Positions 9,180 to 21,300 of a stretch of 64,000 bases of DNA are shown here, one piece after another (positions within the stretch are counted from its first letter, which is position 1; the number at the start of each line of letters is the position of its first letter). The notes under the pieces are model-generated. The model ran no database searches and was not told where the DNA came from. It saw nothing but the letters and a program-made list of their open reading frames with translations. This stretch comes from Armatimonadota bacterium (GTDB taxonomy: Bacteria > Armatimonadota > SYMT01): positions 148,921-212,920 of the forward strand of contig JAWLHY010000013.1 of NCBI GenBank assembly GCA_041690135.1, written 5' to 3'. A program made the position numbers and the translations under genes.

Positions 9180-9217
9180 AAAAAAATGGCGGGCCGAGAA
9201 CGTATACTCGGCCCGCC
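9180..9217 (-). terminator. Rho-independent terminator of the Cys-rich gene
   Basis: Stem GGCGGGCCGAG/CTCGGCCCGCC (9188-9217) with an adjacent A7 (U-tract on the minus strand); a second perfect palindrome lies at 9230-9263. Confidence 0.7.
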
Positions 9218-9276: not shown

Positions 9277-9831
9277 CTACTTGGCGCTCTTGGGGGCGCA
9301 GCAGCCGGCCTTTGCCGGGATGGCCGCGGCCTTCTTTGCCTTCAGGTCACAGCAGGCGGCGGCCGTCTTGCAGCATTCGGCGTTGCCGTTCCGGCAGCAG
9401 TCCGCAGCGGCCGCCACGCAGCATTCGGCGTTGCCGGTTTCGCAGCAGGCCAGGCTCGCCTTGCAGCAGTCCGCGTCATTTGCCACGGAAACTGGGGTTG
9501 CGGCCTTTGCCTTGCAGCACTCGGCTCCGGGCTTCTGGCAGCAGTCCTTCTTCTGGACACAGCAGTCCTTGGCCGCGGGCTTGCAGCACGGCTTGTTCTC
9601 GGCGCAGCAGGCGGCCTTCTTCACGCAGCACTGGGGTGCGGCGGCATGCTGGTGCTGCGCTTTGGCTGCGGCATGGTGCGCCGCATGACCCTGGGCACAG
9701 CAGGCCGGTTTAGCCGCGTTCCCCGTAGACTGCTTCGGTCCGGCCGCCACGAAGGCAGCGGGCATGGCAAGCAGGGCCAGGGCAATCCCGAATACGCGCG
9801 GCTGAAGGGCAACAGAATTCTTTCCAAACAT
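9277..9831 (-). CDS. Secreted Cys-Cys repeat protein (metallothionein-like, putative metal binder)
   Basis: AAAGGA RBS; signal-peptide-like N-terminus; 14 CC pairs and a His patch in 184 aa; followed by a terminator. Confidence 0.75.
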   Translation of the reverse strand: MFGKNSVALQPRVFGIALALLAMPAAFVAAGPKQSTGNAAKPACCAQGHAAHHAAAKAQHQHAAAPQCCVKKAACCAENKPCCKPAAKDCCVQKKDCCQKPGAECCKAKAATPVSVANDADCCKASLACCETGNAECCVAAAADCCRNGNAECCKTAAACCDLKAKKAAAIPAKAGCCAPKSAK

Positions 9832-9960
9832 CGTAGCAGATCCTTTCCGCCCCGTGGGCGGGTAACGAACTTGGCGAACAGACGACAGGGGTGCTGTGCG
9901 GAAACGGCAGGCGTTCCGCGAGGCCCGGTGGCGGCACGAGGCCGCGGTTGTGTCGGATCG

Positions 9961-10410
9961 CTACGAAGTGGGCGGGGCGCGCGAAGGGCGCTCCAGGGCT
10001 ACCGGCGGCGGTCGATGGTCGGTTTCTTCCGGCCAGCCCGCGAAGGTGAAGGCATCCAGGACCAACTCCGGCAGCGGCGCCGCCAGCGGCAGCGCGGCTA
10101 CGCAGAGATCCTCGATCAATGAGCCTGTTGGTACGAGAGCCGCGAGATCCGGCGCAGCGGAAACGGAATAGCGGCAGTGGCCCAGCATGGGGCTCGCCGC
10201 TTCCGCTACGGGAGCTTCCGCTCCGTGTCGGCACGCCTCCACCGCGACCCTCGCGCAGCAGGAAGCTTCGCTCTCCGGCCCCGCGGCCTTACTCCCAGGC
10301 GCCACGACGCAGGGAGTGCCGTCCTGGCAAACCCAGGCCGCACGCACCGGAGCGACCAGCGCGACAGTGAATGCCAGTATGAGGATGAAAGCGAGATACG
10401 GCCTGCGCAC
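9961..10410 (-). CDS. DUF2946/CruR-like leader protein ending in RAPP
   Basis: Probable GTG start at 10410 (ORF open to 10569); hydrophobic N-terminal segment, scattered Cys (WVCQDGTPC, SCC), C-terminus ERPSRAPPTS*; about 130 nt upstream of the Cys-rich gene. Confidence 0.7.
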   Translation of the reverse strand: MRRPYLAFILILAFTVALVAPVRAAWVCQDGTPCVVAPGSKAAGPESEASCCARVAVEACRHGAEAPVAEAASPMLGHCRYSVSAAPDLAALVPTGSLIEDLCVAALPLAAPLPELVLDAFTFAGWPEETDHRPPPVALERPSRAPPTS

Positions 10411-10519
10411 GGCTAAATGACCCCAACCGGATCGATCCGGTTCCCTCGATGTGCTCTCAGTATTCCCGGTTTTCCGATACCGAACTGAACTCCGAGAATT
10501 ATCGTCGTGCTGGCCGTAG

Positions 10520-10542
10520 ATTATCATGGAATTCATGAAAAT
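10520..10542. promoter_or_regulatory. AT-rich imperfect palindrome ATTATCATG-GAATT-CATGAAAAT, candidate metalloregulator operator/promoter
   Basis: 8/9 matching arms; contains TGATAAT on the minus strand; upstream of the RAPP leader. Confidence 0.4.
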
Positions 10543-10548
10543 GCACGC

Positions 10549-10577
10549 AAAGGACCCGGCGGTAATCACCGGGTCCT
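10549..10577 (-). terminator. Possible terminator after the His-rich gene
   Basis: Stem AGGACCCGG/CCGGGTCCT with only a short U run. Confidence 0.4.
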
Positions 10578-10607
10578 ACGCGTGCCGTTCCGTATTGTGA
10601 TGGATGC

Positions 10608-10958
10608 CTAGGCTGCGACTTCTACCTGGCCGTGGTCGTCGCAGTGGGTGCCGTGCGGGTGGTGCAGGTGCCCATCCACCAGGTAGTCCACGTGGTCGCC
10701 ATGGGGCACCGCTTCGTGGCCGCAGCCGGGTCCGTGCTGGTGGCCCGGATCGTGGGCGCCGCAGTTATGGTTGGGCGTGCAGTCCGCCGGGTTGGCCGCA
10801 CCCACGGCCAGGGCATGCTCGTCTACGTGGTCGCCATGCATGTGGTGGAGGTGTCCGTCGTGGAGGTAATCTGTGTGCCCCTCGTGTTTGATGGCCGTAT
10901 GACCGCAGCCCGCTCCGTGCTGATGAGTGTGGCCCGCATGTTCCTTACAGTCGCTCAT
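10608..10958 (-). CDS. His-rich tandem-repeat putative Zn-binding protein
   Basis: 27 His and 6 Cys in 116 aa; two copies of HQHGxGCGHxAxxHxxHxDYLxDGHLHHxHG; GGAGG RBS; directly downstream of the SmtB-type repressor. Confidence 0.85.
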   Translation of the reverse strand: MSDCKEHAGHTHQHGAGCGHTAIKHEGHTDYLHDGHLHHMHGDHVDEHALAVGAANPADCTPNHNCGAHDPGHQHGPGCGHEAVPHGDHVDYLVDGHLHHPHGTHCDDHGQVEVAA

Positions 10959-10979
10959 GAGTTGCTCCTCCGGCCGCCC

Positions 10980-11360
10980 CTAGCGGCAGTTTTCTTTGGC
11001 GTGCGCGATGACGTTGGTGATGACCTCCGCGACATGCCCGTCGGCCAGGAAGTAGTAGATATGCTTCCCTTCCCGGCGGGTAGCCACAAGGTTTTCGGCG
11101 CGCAGTACCCGCAGTTGCTGGGACACCGTCGAGAGCCCCACCCCCATGGCTTCCGCGAGGTCGGTGACGCACCGCTCCCCGTCGAGAAGTTGGTCCAGCA
11201 GCCTCAAGCGCGAGGCATCGCCCGCAGCCCGGAAAATCCTGGCTGCCCGTTCCAGTGCCGCGTCGCTGGCTTCGGCGCCCCGGGTCATTGCTCCCGCGTG
11301 CGCCTCCCCCCGGCAACCCGGCCCGCCTTCCAGGGTCTCTCGATCATCGCTTCCGTTCAT
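10980..11360 (-). CDS. ArsR/SmtB family metal-sensing repressor with an alpha5 site
   Basis: FRAAGDASRLRLL, ERCVTDLA, STVSQQLRVLR, RREGKHIYY; alpha5 ligand pattern DxH-x10-HxxE (DGHVAEVITNVIAHAKE); start placed at ATG 11360 after the promoter. Confidence 0.9.
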   Translation of the reverse strand: MNGSDDRETLEGGPGCRGEAHAGAMTRGAEASDAALERAARIFRAAGDASRLRLLDQLLDGERCVTDLAEAMGVGLSTVSQQLRVLRAENLVATRREGKHIYYFLADGHVAEVITNVIAHAKENCR

Positions 11361-11394
11361 CACTTCATTATATGTTGAAGTGATCGATTGTAAA
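11359..11394 (-). promoter_or_regulatory. Sigma70 promoter TTTACA-16-TATAAT overlapped by the 9-8-9 inverted repeat ATCACTTCA/TGAAGTGAT
   Basis: -35 at 11389-11394 and -10 at 11367-11372 on the minus strand; ATG 6 nt after the -10; IR at 11359-11384. Confidence 0.7.
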
Positions 11395-11489
11395 CCGCAG
11401 ATTTGCAATCGTTTCGCCGAGGACGGGAAGCGCCACGCAGTGGATCGCGCACAGGATCGCCATGAAGGAGCTGAGGCTCGATCCGCGCA

Positions 11490-13841
11490 TCAGTGGGCCT
11501 CTCCCGCCGCGTGACCCCCGCAGCACCCGTGAGCGTGATGCGAGTGGTGGTGCGCGGAACTACAGCAACCACCACTCGCTCCCGCGTGCGTGTGCGGGAC
11601 CGTCGGAGCGGCCACGGCCTGGAGCATGGGCAGTTCCAGCCCCCGCGGCGCGGCTACGGCGTGAATAGGGAGCGGGCTGCGTACCGGGTTCATGGTTTCG
11701 GTCCGGCTGGAAGGCATCCCGGTAGAACCGGCGAGGGATGTCTTCTCCCTCCGTCCCAGGAGGCGACTGGAATTGAGCATAATCAACAGGTCCGGCAGGT
11801 TGTGCGCGGCGGCGGCATACACGGGCGGCAGCAGGCCGACGGCGGCCAGTGGGAGCCCGCAGAGATTATAGAAGGCACTGAAGAACAGGTTCTGCCGGAT
11901 GGTGCGGACCGCCTTGCGGCCGATCCGGATCGCCTCCGGCACCAGGCGCCAATCGTCCCGGAGCAGGGTCAGGTCCGCCGCCTCCAGCGCCACGTCCACG
12001 CCTCGTAACCCCATCCCCACCCCCACGTGGGCCTGGGCCAGGGCGGGGGCGTCGTTGATTCCATCGCCCACCATCATCACCCGGCATCCGCTCGCCTGGA
12101 GCTCGCGGATAACCGCCGTTTTCCCCTCGGGCAACAGGCCCGCCCGGCATTCCACTCGCAGCGCGTCGGCCACGCGCCGCGCGGAAGCTGGGTGGTCGCC
12201 GGTGAGCATCAGGACGCGGCGGATACCCAGCGAGCGGAGCTCCTCCAGCGCCTCCCGCACTTCCGGACGCGGCGTATCGGAAAGCGCGATCCAACCGGCG
12301 AGCCTTCCCGCGCGCGCTACCAGCAGGACCGTTCTTCCCTCGTCCTGAAGCTGGCACACCCGCTGCTGGTTTCGCTGCTCGATCGAAATGCCCTGTTCTT
12401 CCAGCAGCCGGGTATTGCCCACCAGCCAGCGTTCACCCGCGATGCGCCCTTCGACGCCGCGCCCCGGGTGGGCCTGGAAGCTTTCGGCGTGGCCCAGGTG
12501 CAGGCCTTGGTGCCGGGCGTATCGCACCACCGCCTCCCCCACCGGGTGTTCGCTTTGCCGCTCGAGGCCGGCCACCGCCGCCAGCATCGCCGGAGCGGAG
12601 CCTCCATTGACGGTCTCCAGCGCGGCGACTTCCAGTTGTCCGGTCGTCACGGTACCTGTCTTGTCGAGCACCACGGTATCGACCGTTGCCAGTTGCTCCA
12701 GGGCGGCGCCTCCCTTGATGAGCAGGCCGCGCCGGGCCGCGCTGCCGACGCTGGCGATGACGACCACCGGGGTGGCCAGGGCGATGGAGCAGGCGCAGGC
12801 GGTCACCAGCACGGCAACCGCGTTCTCGATCCGGTGTGAGAGGAAGAAGGTAGCGGCCGCGAAGACCAGGATGCCGGGTAGGTACCAGGCGGTGAACCGG
12901 TCGGCAAACCGCTGGGTACCGGATTTGCGGGACTCCGCCTCTTCCACCAGGCGGATGATCCCGGCGAAAGTGGTATCCGCCCCCACCCGGGTCGCTTCGA
13001 TCTCCAGGCTGCCGGCCTGCACCAGCGTGGCCGCGAAGACGGGATCTCCCGGCTTCTTGTCGACGGGAAGAGACTCCCCGGTTACCGTGGACTCGTCGAC
13101 CGGCGCCAGCCCGCGGAGCACCGTGCCGTCCACGGGCACGCGCTCGCCGGGACGAACGAGGATGCGGTCGCCCACGGCCACTTCGGAAATGGGCAGTTGC
13201 CGCTCCGTAGCCCCTTCCAGCACGCGCGCGGTGGCGGGGCGCGAGGCGACCAGGCGCTGCAGGGCTTCCCGGCTACGGCCGGCGCACAGCGCTTCGAGCC
13301 GGTCCGCCACGTGCATGAAGAACAGCACGATCCCCGCCGTGACCCACTCCCCGGTGGCCGCGGCCGCCGCCATTCCGAGGACCAGCAGCGAGTGACTGGT
13401 GAGCCGTCCCCGCATCATCCCCCGGCCGACTGCCAGGAATTGCTTCCAGCCCGCCGCCAGCAGGGCCGCGGCTTTCACCGCCGCGGGCACGGGTGCAAGC
13501 AGGCGGTCGAACAGGCCCAGGTGCTCCCCCGTGGCCAGCAGGAGCACCGCGGCCGTTATCCCGGCCAGCATCTCCCAGCCGGGAAGCCGTTCGGTAGCCG
13601 GGGCGGAAGTTGTCACCACCTCTTCCGGCACCTGATAGCCCGCGCGGGTAATCGCCTCGGCCAGGTGGCGAACCTCTACCTGGTCGGGGGCAAACTCCAC
13701 GGTCGCCCGTGCGGCGGCGAGGAGTACGGATACCCGGAAGACGCCCGGAAGCCGGTTCAACAGCGCCTCCACCTCGGAGGCACAAGACGGACAGTCCATC
13801 CCCTGGATGGGCAGTTCCACGGTGGTAGTGGTAGCGGACAT
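11490..13841 (-). CDS. Heavy-metal P1B ATPase with a non-canonical CAC membrane motif and a His/Cys-rich tail
   Basis: HMA GMDCPSC, TGES, VTACACSIALATP, DKTGT, SEHP, GDGINDAP, YN in TM7; tail GCCSSAHHHSHHAHGCCGGH; GAGGG before ATG 13841 (ORF track to 13949). Confidence 0.92.
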   Translation of the reverse strand: MSATTTTVELPIQGMDCPSCASEVEALLNRLPGVFRVSVLLAAARATVEFAPDQVEVRHLAEAITRAGYQVPEEVVTTSAPATERLPGWEMLAGITAAVLLLATGEHLGLFDRLLAPVPAAVKAAALLAAGWKQFLAVGRGMMRGRLTSHSLLVLGMAAAAATGEWVTAGIVLFFMHVADRLEALCAGRSREALQRLVASRPATARVLEGATERQLPISEVAVGDRILVRPGERVPVDGTVLRGLAPVDESTVTGESLPVDKKPGDPVFAATLVQAGSLEIEATRVGADTTFAGIIRLVEEAESRKSGTQRFADRFTAWYLPGILVFAAATFFLSHRIENAVAVLVTACACSIALATPVVVIASVGSAARRGLLIKGGAALEQLATVDTVVLDKTGTVTTGQLEVAALETVNGGSAPAMLAAVAGLERQSEHPVGEAVVRYARHQGLHLGHAESFQAHPGRGVEGRIAGERWLVGNTRLLEEQGISIEQRNQQRVCQLQDEGRTVLLVARAGRLAGWIALSDTPRPEVREALEELRSLGIRRVLMLTGDHPASARRVADALRVECRAGLLPEGKTAVIRELQASGCRVMMVGDGINDAPALAQAHVGVGMGLRGVDVALEAADLTLLRDDWRLVPEAIRIGRKAVRTIRQNLFFSAFYNLCGLPLAAVGLLPPVYAAAAHNLPDLLIMLNSSRLLGRREKTSLAGSTGMPSSRTETMNPVRSPLPIHAVAAPRGLELPMLQAVAAPTVPHTHAGASGGCCSSAHHHSHHAHGCCGGHAAGEAH

Positions 13842-14053
13842 GGAAAAACACCCTCTTCTGCCGCGAGCAGCCATGCCGGAATGCTGATTGTGCGGGCCTG
13901 GCGGCGACCGGCCGCGGAGGCGCCGAATCCCCCACCATGGGCTTTCCATCCGGAAAGGGCCGCGAGTAGGGGCCGAAACCCGGACCCCGCTCCGAAACCG
14001 CTACTGGAGGCAGCCGAATCACGAGGGGCGCGGGACGGGGGATCGCTTGAGGA

Positions 14054-14392
14054 TCAGGCAGCAGGGGGGCCGCGGGAGGGGCGGAGGGGGTGGCAACCGG
14101 CCAGGGTCGCCTGGGGGGAGATCGGGGAAAGCTCGAGAGCGCTGGTGGCCGTGGAAGCGTGGAAGCCGAGTGTCTCTGGTTTCGGCCGCGCCTGGGCGAG
14201 CCACGCGCACGCGGGACAGGAATGATCCCCGAAAGGCGCGTCCGCCTCCGCGTGCACCGCCGTGAGGACCACTCCCGGTTCCCCGGCGTGCGCAGAGTCG
14301 CCCGCGCACCGGTGACCGAGAACCCCGCCCGTCCCCGCAAAGAGGAGACAGGCAGCCAGAAGCCAAGCCACGGCCCGGGAGCAAGACAGCAC
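14054..14392 (-). CDS. DUF2946/CruR-like leader protein (CPAC, C-terminal RGPP)
   Basis: Hydrophobic N-terminal segment, HSCPAC, ends RPSRGPPAA*; start uncertain (GTG 14392, ORF open to 14506); about 210 nt upstream of the P1B ATPase. Confidence 0.72.
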   Translation of the reverse strand: MLSCSRAVAWLLAACLLFAGTGGVLGHRCAGDSAHAGEPGVVLTAVHAEADAPFGDHSCPACAWLAQARPKPETLGFHASTATSALELSPISPQATLAGCHPLRPSRGPPAA

Positions 14393-14515
14393 AAAACCGA
14401 ACCCTGCCACAGGGTTCAGGTAAGGTGTCCGGGGCCGGTCTATCGCTCTCCTGGTACCACTCATTGCCGAGAACGACCTATCCAACGTCGCAGCAGGCTT
14501 AACCACCCAACGAAT

Positions 14516-15481
14516 TCATCGGATGCCGTCCCGCTTCTCTGTAGGGATACTACGCGCTCTCCAGGGGACACTCCTCCCAAGTCCCGCGCGGTTGAGCACC
14601 TTTTCCAGAACCACGTCCGGACCGACCACTGCCAGCCCGGTTTTTGCCACCTGCACGGCTCGTTCCGACTTTCCGGAGCTGACGTAGCAGAGAGCGAGCC
14701 AGCGGAAGGCGTCGGTGACGGCGCCGAACTCCTCCTCGGACAGCGCGCGGTCGCGCTGGGCGAGGGCCAGGGCCTGGTTCAGGTGTCGTTCCGCGGCGAC
14801 GAAATCCCGGAAATAGACGAGATGGAACCGCCCGACCTCGGTGTGGATCTCGAAGGATTCGGGGTTATGCCGGAGCCCTTCCTGCAGGAAGCGCAGCCCG
14901 GCTTCCGCGTGCTTTCCCGATTCGCAGAGGATGGCGCCGCCCGTGGTGTAGCCGCGGATGAAGTGGGGGTCCAGCCGCGTCATCAAGCGGAAGAACGGCA
15001 GGGTCTGTGCCTGGTCCCGGTGGATCTCCATCCCCTGCTCATCCGAGTAAGGCTTCACGGCGCGCTCCAGATCCCCCAGGACGCCCCGGAAGTCTTCTTC
15101 CTTGCTGGGGATCGCGAGGACGTGCCCGTGATTTCCGTTCTCCTCCTCGTGATGCTCGTCGTGATGGCCGTCGTGCGCGTGTTCGGCCTCGCCGGCGGCC
15201 TCATCGTGCTCGACCCCGCCGTGGAGCACCTGTTCGCTCTTCACCCACATCATTCGCGCGAGGAGACGGCGCCCCTCCCACGTGGCCCCGGAAAGGGACG
15301 CTTCTTCCGAAGCCGTGGTCAACGGGCCGGAACGCAGGAAACCGCTTCCCGCCCCCAGCCCGATCAGCAGCGCGACCAGCGCCGTGCCGCGAATCAGGTC
15401 CGCCGCAGCCTGGCGTTTCCGCGCGGAAGCGTGGGAGCGGCCCGGTAGGAGAGACTCCGCCATCCGATCAGCGCTGGACAT
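14516..15481 (-). CDS. Membrane-anchored TPR-like protein with a His/Glu-rich segment
   Basis: N-terminal TM; HGGVEHDE...HAHDGHHDEHHEEE; TPR-like helices (FLQEGLRHNPESFEIHTEVG); start overlaps the upstream stop. Confidence 0.7.
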   Translation of the reverse strand: MSSADRMAESLLPGRSHASARKRQAAADLIRGTALVALLIGLGAGSGFLRSGPLTTASEEASLSGATWEGRRLLARMMWVKSEQVLHGGVEHDEAAGEAEHAHDGHHDEHHEEENGNHGHVLAIPSKEEDFRGVLGDLERAVKPYSDEQGMEIHRDQAQTLPFFRLMTRLDPHFIRGYTTGGAILCESGKHAEAGLRFLQEGLRHNPESFEIHTEVGRFHLVYFRDFVAAERHLNQALALAQRDRALSEEEFGAVTDAFRWLALCYVSSGKSERAVQVAKTGLAVVGPDVVLEKVLNRAGLGRSVPWRARSIPTEKRDGIR

Positions 15482-16304
15482 AGCTCTCCGGCTCCTGGAT
15501 CGATTCCGGCTGCTTCTTGGCGCGCTGGACGAACTCGTCGATGCAGGGCGGACAGCAGAAGCGGTATTCCTTGCCGCCGATGGTCCACACGAACCGGGGG
15601 TTTGCCTTGGTGGAGGTGATGGGGCAGATCCGGTCGCCCGGGCGCGGGTTCATGTCGTGGCTCGACTGGATGCCCCGGTACTTCGCGGCGGCAGACTGGG
15701 TGCCGTTGGCGCGGATGTCCGCCTCCGTGTACCGGCCTCCCGGCGTGGCGTACAGTGCGGACACCTCGTCCGCTCCCGCCCCGCCCGGCATGGAGAGCAT
15801 TTCCAGCATCTCGGGGTGGACTTCGTCGGCCCGGTGCGGCTTCAGCTCGAAACGCGCGCGGTAGCCCTTTCCCTCCAGGGGGAGCGTCATCGCCACGGTT
15901 ACGGGTGCGCCCACCAGGCTTTCCGGCAGCTGACCCAGGAACGAGGAGGACTGGCCGTTCGGGTCGCCGGGCTGGGGGTCGGCGCTCAGCGTGACGGGCG
16001 CGGATTCCACCTCGTCGTCGCCCTGCACCTGGGCCACTACTTCGGGGAGCGGGGCCGGCGTCAGCTGCGCTTCATCCTTCCCCAGGAGATACACCCGCAG
16101 TCTTCCGCCCTTCTCCAGCACGGCCTCTACGTGGTGGTTGCCGATCGCCTGGATCGCGCCGCCGTGGCGGCTGGAGTGGGCGTGCTCCTTCGCGTCGTGA
16201 GCCCTGGCACCCGTGCGGGATGCGGACAGCATGAGGACCGAACCGGCGGTCACCGCACCCACCAGTCCGAGGAGAGCAACTCTGGAATTCGGCTTGAACG
16301 GCAT
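15468..16304 (-). CDS. Exported metal-binding protein with a C-terminal YHS/TRASH-like domain
   Basis: Signal peptide; HxHxxxHGG..HHVE N-domain; CPIT...YRFCCPPCIDEF; GGAG RBS. Confidence 0.75.
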   Translation of the reverse strand: MPFKPNSRVALLGLVGAVTAGSVLMLSASRTGARAHDAKEHAHSSRHGGAIQAIGNHHVEAVLEKGGRLRVYLLGKDEAQLTPAPLPEVVAQVQGDDEVESAPVTLSADPQPGDPNGQSSSFLGQLPESLVGAPVTVAMTLPLEGKGYRARFELKPHRADEVHPEMLEMLSMPGGAGADEVSALYATPGGRYTEADIRANGTQSAAAKYRGIQSSHDMNPRPGDRICPITSTKANPRFVWTIGGKEYRFCCPPCIDEFVQRAKKQPESIQEPESYVQR

Positions 16305-16391
16305 CTTCTTCTCCGATGCAACAGTCTGTGCCCGGCACCTCTACGGATGGGGTGGGTGCCGTCAGCCCACGTCACCCTATGGTGGCATCTT

Positions 16392-16457
16392 ACCTTAGAT
16401 TATTGAGGTAGTGTTTCATTAGATTCTTGAGGTTGTACTTCATTAAATCCTCGGCCT
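16392..16457. repeat. Three degenerate 24-bp-period direct repeats in the divergent promoter region
   Basis: TTAGATTATTGAGGT (16395), TTAGATTCTTGAGGT (16419), TTAAATCCTCGG (16443). Confidence 0.6.
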
Positions 16458-16462
16458 TGAGT

Positions 16463-16491
16463 TTGACGCTGGTTCTGGCATATGCTACAGT
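16463..16491 (+). promoter_or_regulatory. Sigma70-like promoter TTGACG-17-TACAGT with an extended -10 TG
   Basis: -35 at 16463-16468, TG at 16483-16484, -10 at 16486-16491; 45 nt upstream of the leader ORF. Confidence 0.55.
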
Positions 16492-16535
16492 ACTGCACTA
16501 CCCGCACGGGTCGTGCGAATGGAGTATAGCCTGCC

Positions 16536-16901
16536 GTGCCCGGCCTCTTTCGACAGTTCAAAAAGAGCCAGCGAAGCCTATCCGCCGTTCTGATCCTGGT
16601 CTACGTGCTCGCCCTGGGTCTCCTCACCGGAGGTCACCAGTGCCTCGCGGGGCCGGCAGCGGATGGGCGGCACGTGCACGTGGGTGCGGAGCAGGTACTC
16701 GCGTCTCTCGCGGACGACAGCCCGACGCATCATGCCTGTCCGGCGTGCACACTCCGGGCAGGCGCCGAGGCCCAACTCCAGATGGCCCCGGCGTTCCCAA
16801 ATCCCGCGGCGGACTACCGGCAAGTCCTGCCCCTTTCCGTCCCCGACTTCCTTACCCTCTCCTCGGTCCCCTACTCCCTCCGTGGACCTCCCGTTTCCTG
16901 A
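16536..16901 (+). CDS. DUF2946/CruR-like leader protein (HACPAC, C-terminal RGPP)
   Basis: GGAG RBS with GTG start; TM/signal segment, GGHQC, HVH, HHACPAC; ends YSLRGPPVS*; first gene of the porin-ZnuABC unit. Confidence 0.78.
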   Translation: MPGLFRQFKKSQRSLSAVLILVYVLALGLLTGGHQCLAGPAADGRHVHVGAEQVLASLADDSPTHHACPACTLRAGAEAQLQMAPAFPNPAADYRQVLPLSVPDFLTLSSVPYSLRGPPVS

Positions 16902-17115
16902 TGGGTTTCCTTACCGGGATCGACGCCTGAGCGTCGTCTCCCACCCCACCGCCTCAAGCCTTTACCGGATGCTGTTCCGCTAGTACGGATCTCCGGTAAT
17001 GTGATTGCAGCCAAGTAACCAGGCTGTCGGCTCCCGGCAATGCGTCCAACCTCGCTGACGCGGCCACTCCGGACGGAGCTACGACAGCCCATGAAAAACC
17101 CTGAATCAGGAACAC

Positions 17116-18566
17116 ATGATGGAGAAATCAATCAAGGTCGCCCTGCTGGCGGCCGGAGTCCTGGCCGCCGTGCCCTGCATGGTCGCTGCCGAAGAAGGAA
17201 AAGAGTCCGCTGCCCCGAACAACTCCGCCGCCTCGGAGAGTGGCAATGCGCAGTCCGGCACCCCGGCCGCCCCGTCGTCGCGGGAAGCGGAGATCGAGAG
17301 CCTCAAGAAGGCGATCGAAGAGTTGCAGAAGCGCGTGATGGACCTGGAGAAAGAAAAGAAGGCGGAAAGCGACAAGCCCGTCGAGCCGGTCCCCGCCGTG
17401 CCCGAACCGACCCCCACCCCCCCCCCCCCCCCCCCCCCCCGCGGGCCCCCCGGGGCCCGGGCGGGGCCGGCGCTACCTTTTTGCCGAACATCAGTGTCGT
17501 GGGGAATATTATCGGCCGCGCTGGAGACACGAGAGCGTTTCCGGGCCGCGGGCGCACGCACCTGGAGGAACTGGAAGTCGCGTTCCAGGATGCCGTAACT
17601 CCGAAACTCCGCTACGATGTCTTCCTTTCCGCAGAGAAGGAAGAGAGCTGGTCGGTGGGCCTGGAAGAAGGTTTCCTTACAGCTACCGGTCCGCTTAAGA
17701 ACCTGAACATCATCGCCGGCCGGAAGCGCACCCCCATCGGACGGTTCAACCCCCTCCACCCGCACCAGTGGCTCTTCATCACCCAGCCTACCTCGCACGC
17801 GTCGTTGCTGGGGGACCACGGGCTCATCGCGGATGGCGCCCTTGCTCATTACATTCTCCCAACCAAGGGGTTCTATGCCGCCCTGGAGTTCGGCGCGTGG
17901 CAGACGGCGAGCCATCACGCTCATGAAGAGGAAGAGCATGAAGATGAGCACGAGGAAGAACACGAAAAGGACCACAAGAAGGGCAAGAAGGTGCTCCGCC
18001 GGCCAGGAATTGCGCAAGCGGAGCACGACCACGGCGGCGAGTTAGGCTTCCAGGGGGGCGAAAACGGCGCCTACCATACCCGGTTTCACCTGGCCAAGGC
18101 GTTAGATCGCAACACGGAGATCGAATTCGGTGCCACACGCTACTGGGGACGTGGTCCCAGTCCGCACCTGACCGGACGGCGAATGCTGGCCGTGAACGGA
18201 CTCGACTTCAGTTATCGCAGCTATCCGGGCGCCTACAAGCGCCTGTGGTTCCTGGCGGAGTTGCTGGCGCACGAGACGAGCGATATCAACGGAAGCACCA
18301 AGCTGCGGCCCGGCGGCTTTGCGATGCTGGCGTACCGGTGGAACCGCTATTGGGAAGCGGGCATTCGTGGCGACTACACGAAGTTCCCCTACCCCATCGA
18401 AGGCAAGGAATATGGCGGTAGCCTGTTCCTCACGAAGTATCTTACGGAACAGACTTCGCTGCGACTGGAGTATCGACATGAGCGCGATCCCCAGTACGGA
18501 GCGTCCAATGGAGTTTTCTTCCAGCTCCTGTTCGGCTCCGGGCCGCACACGCATGAGATCCAGTAG
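17116..18566 (+). pseudogene. Outer-membrane beta-barrel/porin-like protein of metal-ABC operons, frameshifted at or near a C24 tract (real or sequencing error)
   Basis: Signal peptide and coiled-coil in ORF 17116..17598; beta-rich body (LPNISVVGN, LEEGF, FNPLHPH, SLRLEY, FQLLFGSGPHTH) in the other frame (ORF 17040..18566); C homopolymer at 17417-17440. Confidence 0.7.
17417..17440 (+). repeat. C24 homopolymer
   Basis: 24 consecutive C in a Pro-rich linker. Confidence 0.9.
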
Positions 18567-18603
18567 GCCCAACCACCTTCCCATCCAGATAGGAGAATGG
18601 CTG

Positions 18604-19512
18604 ATGAAGTTTTTTCAGTTTGCAGTTGCCGGCCTTTGCTTGATGCTCATTTCCGCGGCGCGGCCCGCCGAAGCGAAGGTCGATGTGATGGCAGCCAACC
18701 AGGACCTCGCCTGGGTGGCAAAAACCATAGGCGGCAAGAACGTGAGCGTGGATTACCTGGCCAGCAGCAAACAGGACCCCCACCTCATCGATCCCCGGCC
18801 GAGTCAGGTAGTTCGCCTGTCCCGCACCGACCTAGTCGTCCGGATCGGCCTGGATCTCGATCTGTGGCTCGATTCGTTGATCCGCGCCGCCGGCAACTCC
18901 AAGATCGTCCAGGGAGCGCCGGGATATGTTGACTGCTCTCGGGGAGTGCGGTTGCTCCAGATTCCGCAGGGCAAGCTGGACCCGTCTCGCGGGGATCTGC
19001 ACATCTACGGAAACCCGCATTATTTCTTCGGCCCGTCCAACCTGTCCATCGTCGCCCGTAATGTCATGGACGGACTAAAACGGGTGGACGGCAAGAACGC
19101 GGCCGAATACGAAGCGAACTATAACGCCCTGGCGGCCCGTCTGAAGGAGGCACATGCGAAGTGGAAGGCCCGCCTGGCCGGCGAGAAAGGTAAGGCGGTG
19201 GTGGCCTATCACCAGTCGCTCATCTACTTCCTGACGGACTTCGGCATCCGGGAGTACGCCCAGGTGGAGCCGCGGCCGGGCCTGGAGCCGACTCCCGGCC
19301 ACATCTCCAGCGTGGCCAAGGCGATGAAGGCGGACGGCGTGAAGGTGATCCTTACGGAGAATTTCCGGCCGCGACGGTTTGCGGATCTCCTTTCCCGGCA
19401 GTCGGGAGCCAAAGTAGTGGTGGTGCCGGGCGGCATCGGCGCCGAAAAGGGTCTGGACGACTACTTCACCTTCATGGATGCCATGGTGGAGCGAGTGGCC
19501 GGCGCCCTGTAA
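18604..19512 (+). CDS. znuA: Zn/Mn ABC transporter substrate-binding protein (ZnuA/TroA-like)
   Basis: AGGAG RBS with ATG 18604; signal peptide; QDPH, GNPHY and YH ligand motifs; EPRPGLEPT. Confidence 0.88.
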   Translation: MKFFQFAVAGLCLMLISAARPAEAKVDVMAANQDLAWVAKTIGGKNVSVDYLASSKQDPHLIDPRPSQVVRLSRTDLVVRIGLDLDLWLDSLIRAAGNSKIVQGAPGYVDCSRGVRLLQIPQGKLDPSRGDLHIYGNPHYFFGPSNLSIVARNVMDGLKRVDGKNAAEYEANYNALAARLKEAHAKWKARLAGEKGKAVVAYHQSLIYFLTDFGIREYAQVEPRPGLEPTPGHISSVAKAMKADGVKVILTENFRPRRFADLLSRQSGAKVVVVPGGIGAEKGLDDYFTFMDAMVERVAGAL

Positions 19513-19648
19513 CCCGGAACCCATTCTCCCTTTCCAGAGTAGTGACCGATGTTGCTGCCGCCGGACCCCAGGGAGGTCTGGCGGTGGTCGGCATGGAAGA
19601 AGGGCTTCGGCCCTTCTTTCGGGCTTTCTGAACGAACATGGTTTGGTG

Positions 19649-20413
19649 ATGACGGCACTGGTGGAATTCCGCGACGCGCAGCTCGGTTACGGCCGTCGTG
19701 ATATCGTCCTGCGGGACATTAATCTGCGTATCCACTCCGGCGAATACTGGGGGATCGTGGGCCCGAACGGCTCGGGAAAAACCACACTGCTCCGGACGCT
19801 ACTTGGCCTGCTGCGGCCGGTCGCGGGGGAGGTGGTGGCGCAGCGAGAGGGCGCGCCGCTGCGGTTCGGCTACGTCCCGCAGCGCGAAACGGTGGATGCC
19901 CTCTTCCCCATCCCGGTGCTCGATATCGTCGTCATGGGCCGCTACGGGCGCATCGGCGTGGCGAAACGGCCGGGCAAGCGGGATCGGGAGATTGCCCGTG
20001 AATGTCTGGATCACGTGGGCATCGGTAATCTCGCGCACCGCAATTACCCGGAGCTTTCCGGCGGGCAGCGCCAGCGGGTACTGATCGCGCGAGCCCTGGC
20101 CACGGAGCCGGATCTCCTCGTTCTGGATGAGCCGACCCATGGGATGGATATGCCCAGCGAGCACGGCCTGCTGGAACTGGTCCGCTCGCTCCACACGCAG
20201 CGCGGCCTCACGGTGGTGCTGGTATCGCACCTGCTCGGCAGCGTCGCCGACAGCACCGACCGGATCGCCATCATCGCCCACGGCTCCCTGGAAGCGGGCA
20301 CCCGCGAGGAGATGCTCACCGCCCAGCGGCTCTCCCGGCTCTATGACATGGAAGTGAAGGTTCACCAGATCGACGGCCGATTCGCGGTGATGCCGGGGAA
20401 CGGCGCGCCATGA
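19649..20413 (+). CDS. znuC: Metal ABC transporter ATP-binding protein
   Basis: GPNGSGKT, GYVPQ, LSGGQRQR, LVLDEPT, VSH. Confidence 0.9.
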   Translation: MTALVEFRDAQLGYGRRDIVLRDINLRIHSGEYWGIVGPNGSGKTTLLRTLLGLLRPVAGEVVAQREGAPLRFGYVPQRETVDALFPIPVLDIVVMGRYGRIGVAKRPGKRDREIARECLDHVGIGNLAHRNYPELSGGQRQRVLIARALATEPDLLVLDEPTHGMDMPSEHGLLELVRSLHTQRGLTVVLVSHLLGSVADSTDRIAIIAHGSLEAGTREEMLTAQRLSRLYDMEVKVHQIDGRFAVMPGNGAP

Positions 20414-21300
20414 GTACCGTTCTCGAAATGCTGCAAGAGGGGTTCGTCCAGGACGCGCTCAAGGCGGCGCTCATGGTCGCCCTGATCTGCTCGTACCTCG
20501 GCGTGTTCGTGGTCCTCAAGCGCATCGTCTTTGTGGGTGCGGCCCTCTCGGAGACGGCCTCCCTGGGGGCCGCGCTGGCCTTCTTCCCCCCGATCGTCAC
20601 GGTTTTCGACCAGGTGGTGGAAGCGGCGCCGGCTTTCGAGCCGCTGCGGCACTACAAGCCGCTGGTTTTCGCCCTGACGCTGATGCTCCTCTCCGTGGCC
20701 TTCTTCTCGCAGCAGCGACTGGGCCGGAGGCTGCCGCGGGAGGCGATCATCGGGGTGGTCTTCGCCGGGGCGATCGGGCTCACCCTCCTGGCCCGGAGCC
20801 AGGTGCCCGCCCACGCCGAGCACGAAATGGACGCGCTCATCGGCAACATCCTGGGCGTGGAACCGCTGGAGTTGACGGAGCTGGCTGTCGCCTCCGTGGT
20901 GATCGGCTTACTGCAGATCATTTTCTATAAGGAGTTCGTGCTCGTCTCGTTCGACCCCGAGGTAGCGCGCACTCTCGGCTACCGCGCCCACCGGTGGGAA
21001 CTCCTCTGGTACCTCAGCCTGGGGGTGATGATCGCTGTATCCATTCACGTGGCCGGCACGATCCTGGTGTTCGCCTACCTGGTGATGCCCGCGACGGCGG
21101 CACTGATGCTCTCCCGCCGGATGGGCGTGGTGCTGCTGCTCGCGGTGCTGGTCGGCGTCGCCTCGACCCTGGCGGGGGTGCTGCTCTCCATCTCCCCCGC
21201 CGACCTCCCCACCAGCCCCGCCATCGTAGGCTGTATGGTCCTCCACGTGGCTGCCGCGTGGCTGCTGCGGGGGGTTATCGGGAGGAAGAAGGCTGACTGA
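20410..21300 (+). CDS. znuB: Metal ABC transporter permease (ABC-3 family)
   Basis: LGVFVVLKRIVF.GAALSE, YKEFVLVSFDPEVA, multiple TM helices; ATGA overlap with the upstream gene. Confidence 0.9.
   Translation: MSTVLEMLQEGFVQDALKAALMVALICSYLGVFVVLKRIVFVGAALSETASLGAALAFFPPIVTVFDQVVEAAPAFEPLRHYKPLVFALTLMLLSVAFFSQQRLGRRLPREAIIGVVFAGAIGLTLLARSQVPAHAEHEMDALIGNILGVEPLELTELAVASVVIGLLQIIFYKEFVLVSFDPEVARTLGYRAHRWELLWYLSLGVMIAVSIHVAGTILVFAYLVMPATAALMLSRRMGVVLLLAVLVGVASTLAGVLLSISPADLPTSPAIVGCMVLHVAAAWLLRGVIGRKKAD

Follow-up and report, generated by a model that had tools for sequence, protein, structure and literature searches.

The stretch of DNA considered here, which we call the window, is 64 kb of contig JAWLHY010000013.1 from a metagenome-assembled genome (MAG) of an uncultured, soil-type member of the phylum Armatimonadota (9.1 Mb, 65% G+C), and our subject is a 7-kb part of it in which three short open reading frames, ORF1, ORF2 and ORF3, stand one by one in front of genes concerned with metals. 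ORF1 precedes the gene of a secreted protein crowded with cysteine pairs (the CC protein), ORF2 a P1B-type heavy-metal ATPase, and ORF3 a porin-like outer-membrane protein with a ZnuABC-type importer behind it (Table 1). A sequence-only reading of this DNA had taken all three for leader peptides that end in a ribosome-arrest motif, RAPP or RGPP, and on re-reading of the sequence their coordinates, motifs and tails were all as it had claimed. So were the details: the distance from R-x-P-P to the stop is exactly two codons in each ORF, and each has an N-terminal hydrophobic stretch after a basic one (12–14 of 15 residues in AVLIFMW; for ORF2 and ORF3 it is 12 of 15, by residue counting). The gaps to the metal genes, put at about 130–215 nt, measure 129, 212 and 214 nt, and the C-rich stretches reported after the stops correspond to regions of C-over-G excess, or C>G bubbles, around the ends of all three ORFs. 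On balance we favour the view, built on these sequences and their relatives, that all three ORFs are genuine and conserved genes whose products are small, probably exported peptides, and that each probably serves as the cis-acting leader of the next metal gene through nascent-peptide metal sensing.

Some details of the frames themselves should be given at the outset. Third-position G+C (GC3) in the three proposed frames is 0.75–0.78, above GC2. The GTG of ORF1 at 10410 sits within a longer open frame that extends to 10569, and ORF2 has alternative starts at 14455 and 14506. The gap of 129 nt is that between ORF1 and the CC protein gene; the 212 nt after ORF2 end at the ATG at position 13841, a start with the Shine-Dalgarno sequence AGAGGG that stands immediately ahead of the HMA domain, while counting to the first in-frame ATG of the ATPase, at 13949, leaves 104 nt; and the 214 nt after ORF3 run to the porin-like gene at 17116.

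Table 1. Features of the locus in window positions (promoter-like and hairpin matches come from low-specificity scans)
Feature	Position	Strand	Remarks
ORF1, candidate type B leader	9961-10410	-	149 aa; tail ...ERPSRAPPTS; signal-like N-terminus; W-x-C-x-DG-x-x-C, CC, HCRY and RPPP motifs
RAPP codons of ORF1	9970-9981	-	followed by two codons and the stop
ORF2, candidate type A (DUF2946-like) leader	14054-14392	-	TM segment, GHRC, DHSCPACAW, 44 residues, tail ...PSRGPPAA
CPAC codons of ORF2	14207-14218	-	
RGPP codons of ORF2	14063-14074	-	
ORF3, candidate type A (DUF2946-like) leader	16536-16901	+	TM segment, GHQC, HHACPACTL, 44 residues, tail ...LRGPPVS
CPAC codons of ORF3	16737-16748	+	
RGPP codons of ORF3	16881-16892	+	
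C>G bubble 1	9843-10054	-	ORF1 3' end and gap; peak 0.23
C>G bubble 2	13987-14228	-	ORF2; peak 0.40
C>G bubble 3	16744-17021	+	ORF3; peak 0.38
Secreted CC-repeat protein	9277-9831	-	184 aa, about 17 CC pairs; gene after ORF1
P1B-type heavy-metal ATPase	11490-13841	-	HMA domain, His/Cys-rich C-terminus; open frame to 13949
Porin-like outer-membrane protein	17116-18566	+	coiled-coil N-terminus, His/Glu-rich loop; two frames
ZnuA, ZnuC, ZnuB-type metal ABC importer genes	18319-21300	+	Pfam: ZnuA 5e-51, ABC_tran 3e-29, ABC-3 2e-42
ArsR-family regulator	10980-11408	-	upstream of ORF1, same strand; Pfam
His-rich small protein	10608-10958	-	116 aa, HxH and HGxH repeats; upstream of ORF1
Sigma-70-like promoter match	16463-16491	+	TTGACG, 17 nt, TACAGT, with TG; upstream of ORF3
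Near-consensus promoter-like site	11394-11367	-	before arsR; 11 of 12 positions match
Weak promoter-like site	10527-10498	-	before ORF1
Terminator-like hairpin, strong	9188-9217	-	11 pairs and T run; after CC gene
Hairpin and T run	14397-14419	-	just upstream of ORF2 GTG

The first line of evidence is conservation, and here the ORFs fall into two families. ORF2 and ORF3 belong to what we call type A, of which 24 sequences were compiled, drawn from metagenomes as well as from this genome and further genera of the phylum; ORF2 itself matches the A2 profile with an E-value of 3.1e-23. The members have diverged to a mean column identity of only about 21%, and what is invariant among the 23–24 aligned sequences is a His after the membrane segment (H34), both Cys of the CxxC motif, and the R, P and P of the tail. 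The distance from CxxC to the R is also nearly fixed, at 44 residues in 12 of the 24 (ORF2 and ORF3 both have 44), 43 in ten and 46 in two, and the tail is RGPP in 16 members and RAPP in the other eight, with exactly two trailing residues in 15. Reading of 23 further type A loci gave 16 with the CxxC, the 43–46 residues and R[AG]PP, and a 17th in the genome G036; the remaining six have no such tail in the frame read, for which a wrong frame, a contig end or the lack of a leader are all possible reasons. Retention of the tails in diverged homologues from other genera establishes that these ORFs are conserved. The five-sequence type A profile returned just six proteins, none with a Pfam domain, a locus search with a narrower alignment (A4) gave four related loci, and in a word-indexed homologue search with ORF3 alone none of 36 candidates scored. 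ORF3 was absent from the results of that search of a large protein collection, even as the window's own protein, so that ORFs of this sort may go uncalled and operon predictions around them may err.

ORF1 belongs to a second family, type B. A profile search of 1.84 billion protein representatives found 72 members at E <= 0.001, and 61 of the 66 with a length of 100–260 aa carry R[AGS]PP within five residues of their end, as RAPP in 53 and with exactly two trailing residues in 43. Homologues of ORF1 occur in four of six genomes of the same family (E 1e-16 to 2e-5, 38–44% identity), and two paralogues lie on contig C3 of its own genome. The shared motifs are W-x-C-x-[DN]-G-x-x-C, CC, HCR[FY], RPPP and SRAPP plus two residues; ORF1 has no CxxC. 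No Pfam family is matched by any of eight members scanned, ORF1 has no NCBIfam match, and the ten clusters whose source names were looked up yielded only 'hypothetical protein', which makes type B a small sequence family unnamed in any model library. When the profiles of the two types are compared with each other, just 14 columns of the tail align, at 23% probability. The ORF1 family is separate from type A, and the only feature common to the two is the RAPP tail. A low-confidence AlphaFold2 model of ORF1 (pLDDT 65, pTM 0.36) consists of an N-terminal helix, two short strands and coil.

The second line of evidence comes from the rest of the proteome. In the 3148 long ORFs of this genome RAPP occurs nine times for 53.8 expected (ratio 0.17) and RGPP five times for 43.3 expected (ratio 0.12), a six- to eight-fold depletion, compared with ratios of 0.99 for the reversed motif PPAR and 1.26 for AAPP. 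The same avoidance across bacteria is described, and read as a sign of impeded translation, in Fujiwara 2025 (PMC12992588). Since RAPP and RGPP are avoided elsewhere in the proteome, a tail that is kept in the leaders must serve a purpose. The tail alone is not rare: stop-to-stop ORFs of 60 aa or more number 85,955 in the whole genome, and R[AG]PP.{0,4} closes 118 of them, one of which lies antisense over ORF2. A strong hydrophobic segment as well is present in nine of the 118, and three of the nine are ORF1, ORF2 and ORF3, all within this 7-kb stretch. Five of the nine look like additional leaders (C3:598190-598711(-), C3:594104-595258(+), C3:625844-626455(-), C17:156717-157184(-) and C23:17758-18237(-)), so the genome appears to hold at least eight candidate leaders. 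In locus coordinates the five, each with two to three residues after the tail motif, are L005 10191-10679(-) and 6825-7259(+), L006 6845-7303(-), L007 6718-7104(-) and L008 6759-7142(-). Type B paralogues account for two of them; of the other three, one contains CCC motifs and stands ahead of a gene cluster with MerB-like, YHS and cupredoxin members, another, rich in His and Glu, is followed by a beta-carbonic anhydrase and a SulP transporter, and the last comes after an ECF sigma factor and a 959-aa protein.

Conservation of the pairs formed by a leader and its target is the third line, and it had been suggested as a check on the sequence-only reading. Two of the three pairs recur in other genera, namely ORF3 with porin-ZnuABC and ORF1 with the CC protein, and the pair of ORF2 and the ATPase does not, a point to which we return. 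In the genome G005 the leader has the tail SRGPPHS, and 142 nt behind it come a porin homologue (60% identity) and then ZnuA, ZnuC and ZnuB; the same order of leader, porin, ZnuA, ZnuC and ZnuB is found in G023, which is of another family, and in G036 the leader is followed by the porin. Across 18 loci the gene downstream of a type A leader is a porin homologue in ten, a TonB-dependent receptor-like gene in two, ExbB in one, an outer-membrane efflux protein (OEP) in one, a DUF1559/prepilin-like gene in three and unassigned in one. For type B, a leader in G006 (locus L032) lies 65 nt before a secreted CC-rich protein (L032 540-929 (-)) that resembles the one encoded at 9277-9831, and at one locus of G003 (L041) the leader is likewise followed by a CC-rich protein gene. 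Behind other type B leaders, namely those at the C3 locus of this genome and in G003 and G005, come a small protein and an outer-membrane protein with the motif HEPLWGETP. As an aside, the DUF1559/prepilin-type (N_methyl) targets are at L128, L130 and L134 in other Armatimonadota genomes, and this class of target is not named for DUF2946 or RAPP leaders in the texts of the literature consulted.

The fourth line concerns the nucleic acid. Measured in 78-nt windows, the three C>G bubbles each span the arrest site of their ORF, and skews of this size are uncommon, with values of at least 0.35 in just 0.18% of all such windows of the 64 kb and values of at least 0.20 in 2.6%. For type A the skew was averaged over 22 loci: the final 80 nt of the ORF give +0.22 (positive in all 22) and the 80 nt after it +0.11 (positive in 18), set against a genomic background after stop codons of -0.03 +/- 0.12. 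The genome also encodes rho (633.9 bits), and the named proteins nearest to its Rho, at 91–65% identity, nearly all carry the label of Armatimonadota MAGs. ORF3 lies in a divergent promoter region with a promoter match of its own, and the hairpin immediately before the GTG of ORF2 may set this ORF apart from the TPR gene that precedes it. No weight was given to a small hairpin across the ORF3 stop (16890-16905), since the scan that produced it finds 12 sites where shuffled sequences give 5.0 +/- 2.2.

How do these ORFs compare with systems that have been studied? The closest is CruR (Bp2923) of Bordetella pertussis, a DUF2946 protein whose arrest keeps Rho off a C>G-rich site reaching from the 3' part of the ORF into the gap, and whose arrest is released by copper (as described in Roy 2022, PMC9426467); that arrest was seen in vitro by toeprint, the P site holding the third codon of the motif and the A site the fourth (according to Fujiwara 2025, PMC12992588). 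In the account of Roy 2022 (PMC9426467) DUF2946 is defined by CxxC and RAPP, with the spacing between them kept within one or two residues of 45. ORF2 and ORF3 share with CruR the CxxC, a fixed spacer (45 in CruR, 44 here) and a RAPP-type motif two or three residues from the end, and their hydrophobic N-termini would correspond to its export signal. The gap behind cruR is 162 nt and those here are likewise long (129–214 nt), the peptides appear poorly structured in both cases (helix and coil are reported for CruR, and the ORF1 model is similar), and a C>G bubble runs from the 3' part of the ORF into the gap in both. In addition, ORF3 appears to head an uptake operon in front of an outer-membrane gene, as cruR does. 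The differences are that ORF2 and ORF3 have RGPP rather than RAPP, two rather than three trailing residues, a Pfam score below the cut-off and a home in the Armatimonadota; that their targets are a porin-like protein with a ZnuABC-type importer (ORF3) and a P1B ATPase (ORF2) rather than a TonB-dependent transporter; and that two copies stand back to back in one locus.

A wider class of RAPP/RGPP small secretory proteins encoded upstream of metal genes across phyla is described in Fujiwara 2025 (PMC12992588), where seven arrest peptides are validated in one Streptomyces (S. lividans), and the RAPP/RGPP arrest peptides ApdA and ApdP are treated in Sakiyama 2021 (PMC7897499) and Morici 2024 (PMC10951233). 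The three ORFs resemble this class in being small secretory or membrane proteins with the motif near the C-terminus, in having genes of varied function downstream, metal genes among them, in occurring several to a genome and in the avoidance of the motif by the proteome. By the features that mark the class they belong to it: R[AG]PP stands near the C-terminus, the proteins are small (<300 aa), a co-directional gene follows, and the motif is avoided in the proteome. The ORF1 family fits here without being DUF2946, and its sensor part matches no Pfam or NCBIfam model. A further parallel is Caulobacter CC2720, a DUF2946 gene that heads the czrCBA-zntA zinc/cadmium efflux cluster (Mazzon 2014, PMC4176598) and thus a non-copper (Zn/Cd) efflux locus that includes a P-type ATPase; unlike the situation at ORF2, the next gene there is a resistance-nodulation-division (RND) component and the ATPase is six genes away, and neither arrest nor regulation is studied in the text of that paper.

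The C>G bubbles in a CruR-like position, a skew common to 22 loci and the presence of rho together lead us to favour Rho attenuation of the CruR type as the probable route for the cis-acting leaders. The ribosome would arrest when R-[A/G]-P has reached the P site and the codon of the final Pro occupies the A site. Two codons then lie between this Pro and the stop, so that a ribosome with the usual footprint would have its front edge at about the stop codon. By this time the chain's N-terminal part would have left the ribosome or entered the translocon, bearing Cys and His ligands (in ORF2 and ORF3 CPAC, at a fixed 44 residues; in ORF1 a different set of Cys), and metal bound there would alter how long the arrest lasts. 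For that time the arrested ribosome would cover the C-rich, G-poor tract formed by the end of the ORF and the start of the gap, Rho could not load and transcription would read through into the downstream genes; with the arrest released, Rho would terminate transcription in the gap, as in the CruR model. From the anatomy of the locus we infer the stalling and the sensing of metal, as well as which metals might be involved, the dependence on Rho and the direction of each response.

A number of observations weigh against this picture. Both families are patchy in the phylum: type A was found with the profile of five sequences in 25 of 301 genomes, this one included, and type B in 18 of 301. ORF1 and ORF2 have same-strand genes upstream of them and are not clearly first in their transcription units, and coding rich in Pro, Ala and Ser may be all that lies behind the C>G skew within the ORFs. 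The pair of ORF2 and the ATPase finds no parallel: an ATPase follows a type A leader in none of the 18 downstream genes examined in relatives, the nearest CAC-type ATPase (at locus L042) has no RAPP-tailed leader upstream, and in 41 genomes searched with the ORF2 protein the pair was not seen, the matches being mostly weak ones of which only the G036 locus is a leader. ORF2 in front of an ATPase is so far unique to this window. The curated DUF2946 model also does the case few favours, with ORF3 matching PF11162 at E 0.0031 and 18.7 bits, under the gathering score of 23.7 bits, and ORF2 not matching it at all in a Pfam scan of the window. There is also the problem of direction, in that ORF2 faces export and ORF3 import, so that the same metal acting by the same route would switch both in the same direction. 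As it would be physiologically senseless to drive import and export together, the two must differ in ligand, in the compartment sensed or in the read-out.

The DUF2946 question deserves a closer look, since the sequence-only reading had likened the three ORFs to DUF2946 leaders and had proposed a profile search as the check. For ORF1 a place among them was rejected, there being no CxxC at a fixed distance, no Pfam match in eight members and only a tail to align with type A. For ORF2 and ORF3 it holds in part, through the CxxC, the RGPP tail, the spacing of 44 and the C>G bubble, and while their own scores speak against it the wider clade speaks for it: DUF2946 is matched by nine of 23 type A members (E <= 1, the best 5.2e-6), and it is the sole Pfam family matched by more than one of the 23 members scanned. 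It is for this last reason, in spite of scores below the cut-off, that we read type A as a distant branch of DUF2946, judged on its sequences, rather than as a clean member by the curated score. A DUF2946 scan of the whole genome with Pfam gave four weak matches, none in the window and none above the cut-off, and the curated model is too distant from the type A clade to be useful here. A comparison of the type A profile with PDB structures gave CopC only, at an E-value (0.54) that is not meaningful.

For the ATPase and the CC gene the main rival is a different mechanism, in which stalling stabilised by metal melts a stem-loop that masks the ribosome site of the next gene, so that translation is controlled and metal switches it on. 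The models for this are CutF of Rhodobacter capsulatus and CopL of Xanthomonas/Stenotrophomonas (Ozturk et al. 2021, 2023; preprint 10.1101/2025.02.05.636593), which are likewise small Sec-exported leaders with Cys ligands and a C-terminal proline motif, which must sit directly upstream of a metal-detoxifying gene, and whose downstream gene is turned on by metal, which is what one would expect of the genes for the ATPase and the CC protein at this locus. Control of this type is documented in Ozturk 2023 (PMC9973294) and the preprint 10.1101/2025.02.05.636593, and it would resolve the problem of import and export. The RNA offers some encouragement too, with a GC hairpin (CCGCCC-ACG-GGGCGG) right in front of the ribosome site of the CC gene, AAAGGA, and, in many of the loci folded, stable hairpins 15–50 nt past the stop. 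However, CutF has a CxxxC, a PPPRL tail, a dependence on EF-P and a short gap in which a stem-loop covers the ribosome site, whereas the leaders here have CxxC or another Cys set, R[AG]PP plus two residues and gaps of 129–214 nt, and in the account of Ozturk 2023 (PMC9973294) the melting of stem-loops is limited to short gaps. Folding of 14 loci after their stop codons gave hairpins without a common position or T run, the motifs (CxxC and R[AG]PP) are those of CruR and not the CxxxC and PPP of CutF, and RAPP/RGPP arrest is described as refractory to EF-P (Fujiwara 2025, PMC12992588), on which the CutF model depends. On the Cys motif, the tail, the length of the gap and the lack of a hairpin conserved across loci we do not count the ORFs as CutF-type leaders, and we think a CutF-like mechanism unlikely overall, although such a mode may apply to ORF2 with the ATPase and ORF1 with the CC protein while ORF3 works in the CruR way.

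Decidedly less probable, to our minds, is that the products of the three ORFs are metal-binding proteins of the usual exported sort, which work in trans as chaperones or buffers, with tails that play no regulatory role for the next gene. Exported proteins rich in Cys and His are common in metal loci, ORF1 and ORF2 do lie within same-strand runs of genes, and type B has at least four conserved Cys positions. Against this reading stand the facts that the strongest conservation is in the last six residues and in the distance of these from the stop and the CxxC, rather than in a folded domain, that the ORF1 model is mostly coil, and that RAPP and RGPP are so strongly avoided in the rest of the proteome; moreover, the homologous CruR acts solely in cis and goes undetected as a protein (by the account in Roy 2022, PMC9426467). 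That G+C-rich DNA produced these open frames by chance and their tails by accident of composition, for which one might invoke the 118 tail-bearing ORFs and the one antisense to ORF2, is hardly credible when frame, motifs and tail are kept in homologues of other genera and families, GC3 exceeds GC2 in the proposed frames and the synteny of the downstream genes is conserved.

Returning to cis-acting leaders that sense metal through the nascent peptide, we can say what is and is not new about them. The sequence-only reading had considered the characterised cases to be single copper loci in Proteobacteria, and its claim to novelty is weaker than it was made out to be: of more than 2000 DUF2946 proteins surveyed in Roy 2022 (PMC9426467) a few are outside Proteobacteria, the 5,334 CutF-like proteins listed in Ozturk 2023 (PMC9973294) are not all copper-specific, and Fujiwara 2025 places RAPP/RGPP proteins across phyla. 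As surveys of 2022–2025 already describe the class in many phyla, the leaders at this locus extend a known class and are not a new kind. What appears to be new is the phylum, the ATPase and porin-ZnuABC as targets, the presence of three leaders in 7 kb that face import, export and a putative buffer, and the type B family. In full-text searches, with supplementary lists outside their scope, no paper meaningfully linked Armatimonadota with DUF2946, CruR, CutF or arrest peptides and none joined RGPP with ZnuA; within the same scope, neither the ATPase nor porin-ZnuABC is named as a target in the survey texts of 2022–2025 as consulted.

The interest of the locus lies largely in the matter of direction. 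The characterised metal-sensing arrest leaders are two proteobacterial copper systems, CruR and CutF, which respond to metal in opposite ways, and the question is how that direction is set. Here, nature seems to have laid out the test side by side, with leaders of the same build facing an importer and an exporter, and an unrelated leader with the same tail facing a putative metal buffer. With more doubt than conviction, and extrapolating from the sequences, we entertain the idea that R[A/G]PP plus two codons is a portable arrest cassette that has been recruited independently by unrelated sensor domains, and that, from one divergent region, two near-identical architectures of CPAC, 44 residues and RGPP turn import off and export on, the direction being set, rather than by the peptide, by whether the gap contains a Rho site or a ribosome site that is masked, or by the compartment that the ligands face; type B would then be a new sensor family. 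Were this true, type B might sense a different metal or the thiol/redox state, and might control a new class of secreted CC-repeat metal buffer. The leaders are also useful in a practical way, as markers for annotation.

It remains to describe the genes around the three ORFs. The ATPase is well recognised by Pfam (E1-E2_ATPase 6e-51, HMA 2e-13) and NCBIfam (TIGR01525, 599.7 bits), and its sixth transmembrane segment reads ACACSIALATP, that is, CAC where the family usually has CPC or similar; the NCBIfam scores are alike for the Cd and Cu subfamilies and so do not separate its metal specificity. Its closest relative, at 51% identity and also with CAC, is that of L042, from a Fimbriimonadaceae MAG. 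There, a 72-aa membrane ORF with CSCPFC and without a RAPP tail (L042 2678-2896 (+)) overlaps the start of the ATPase, and might be a small partner or leader of another kind that goes with this subtype of ATPase. The CC protein belongs to no known family in Pfam or NCBIfam, and in the ESM Atlas it meets unnamed clusters only, with scores (0.85–0.86) under the reliable range; by its sequence it is a candidate periplasmic metal buffer. NCBIfam has no match for any of the leaders, the CC protein, the His-rich protein or the porin.

The porin-like gene is split into two frames by a homopolymer of 24 C at 17417-17440 (+), a poly-proline stretch, with the signal peptide and coiled coil in one frame (17116-17598) and the barrel in the other (17040-18566); the porin homologue of G005 is a single unbroken frame. 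The split may be an error of assembly in the length of the homopolymer, or the tract may be prone to slippage and act as an on-off switch for the porin. Two tandem 24-nt copies, 79% identical, lie at 16390-16437 (+) (TTACCTTAGATTATTGAGGTAGTG), in the A+T-rich divergent region that separates ORF3 from the metal genes of the minus strand. These may be the operator of a transcriptional regulator such as the ArsR protein of 10980-11408, in which case transcriptional control would be layered over the leaders. Besides the His-rich small protein, the run of genes on the reverse strand includes two more unassigned genes of metal type, for a TPR protein with a His/Glu-rich insert (14516-15481 (-)) and a secreted protein with a C-terminal Cys motif like that of YHS/TRASH domains (15468-16304 (-)).

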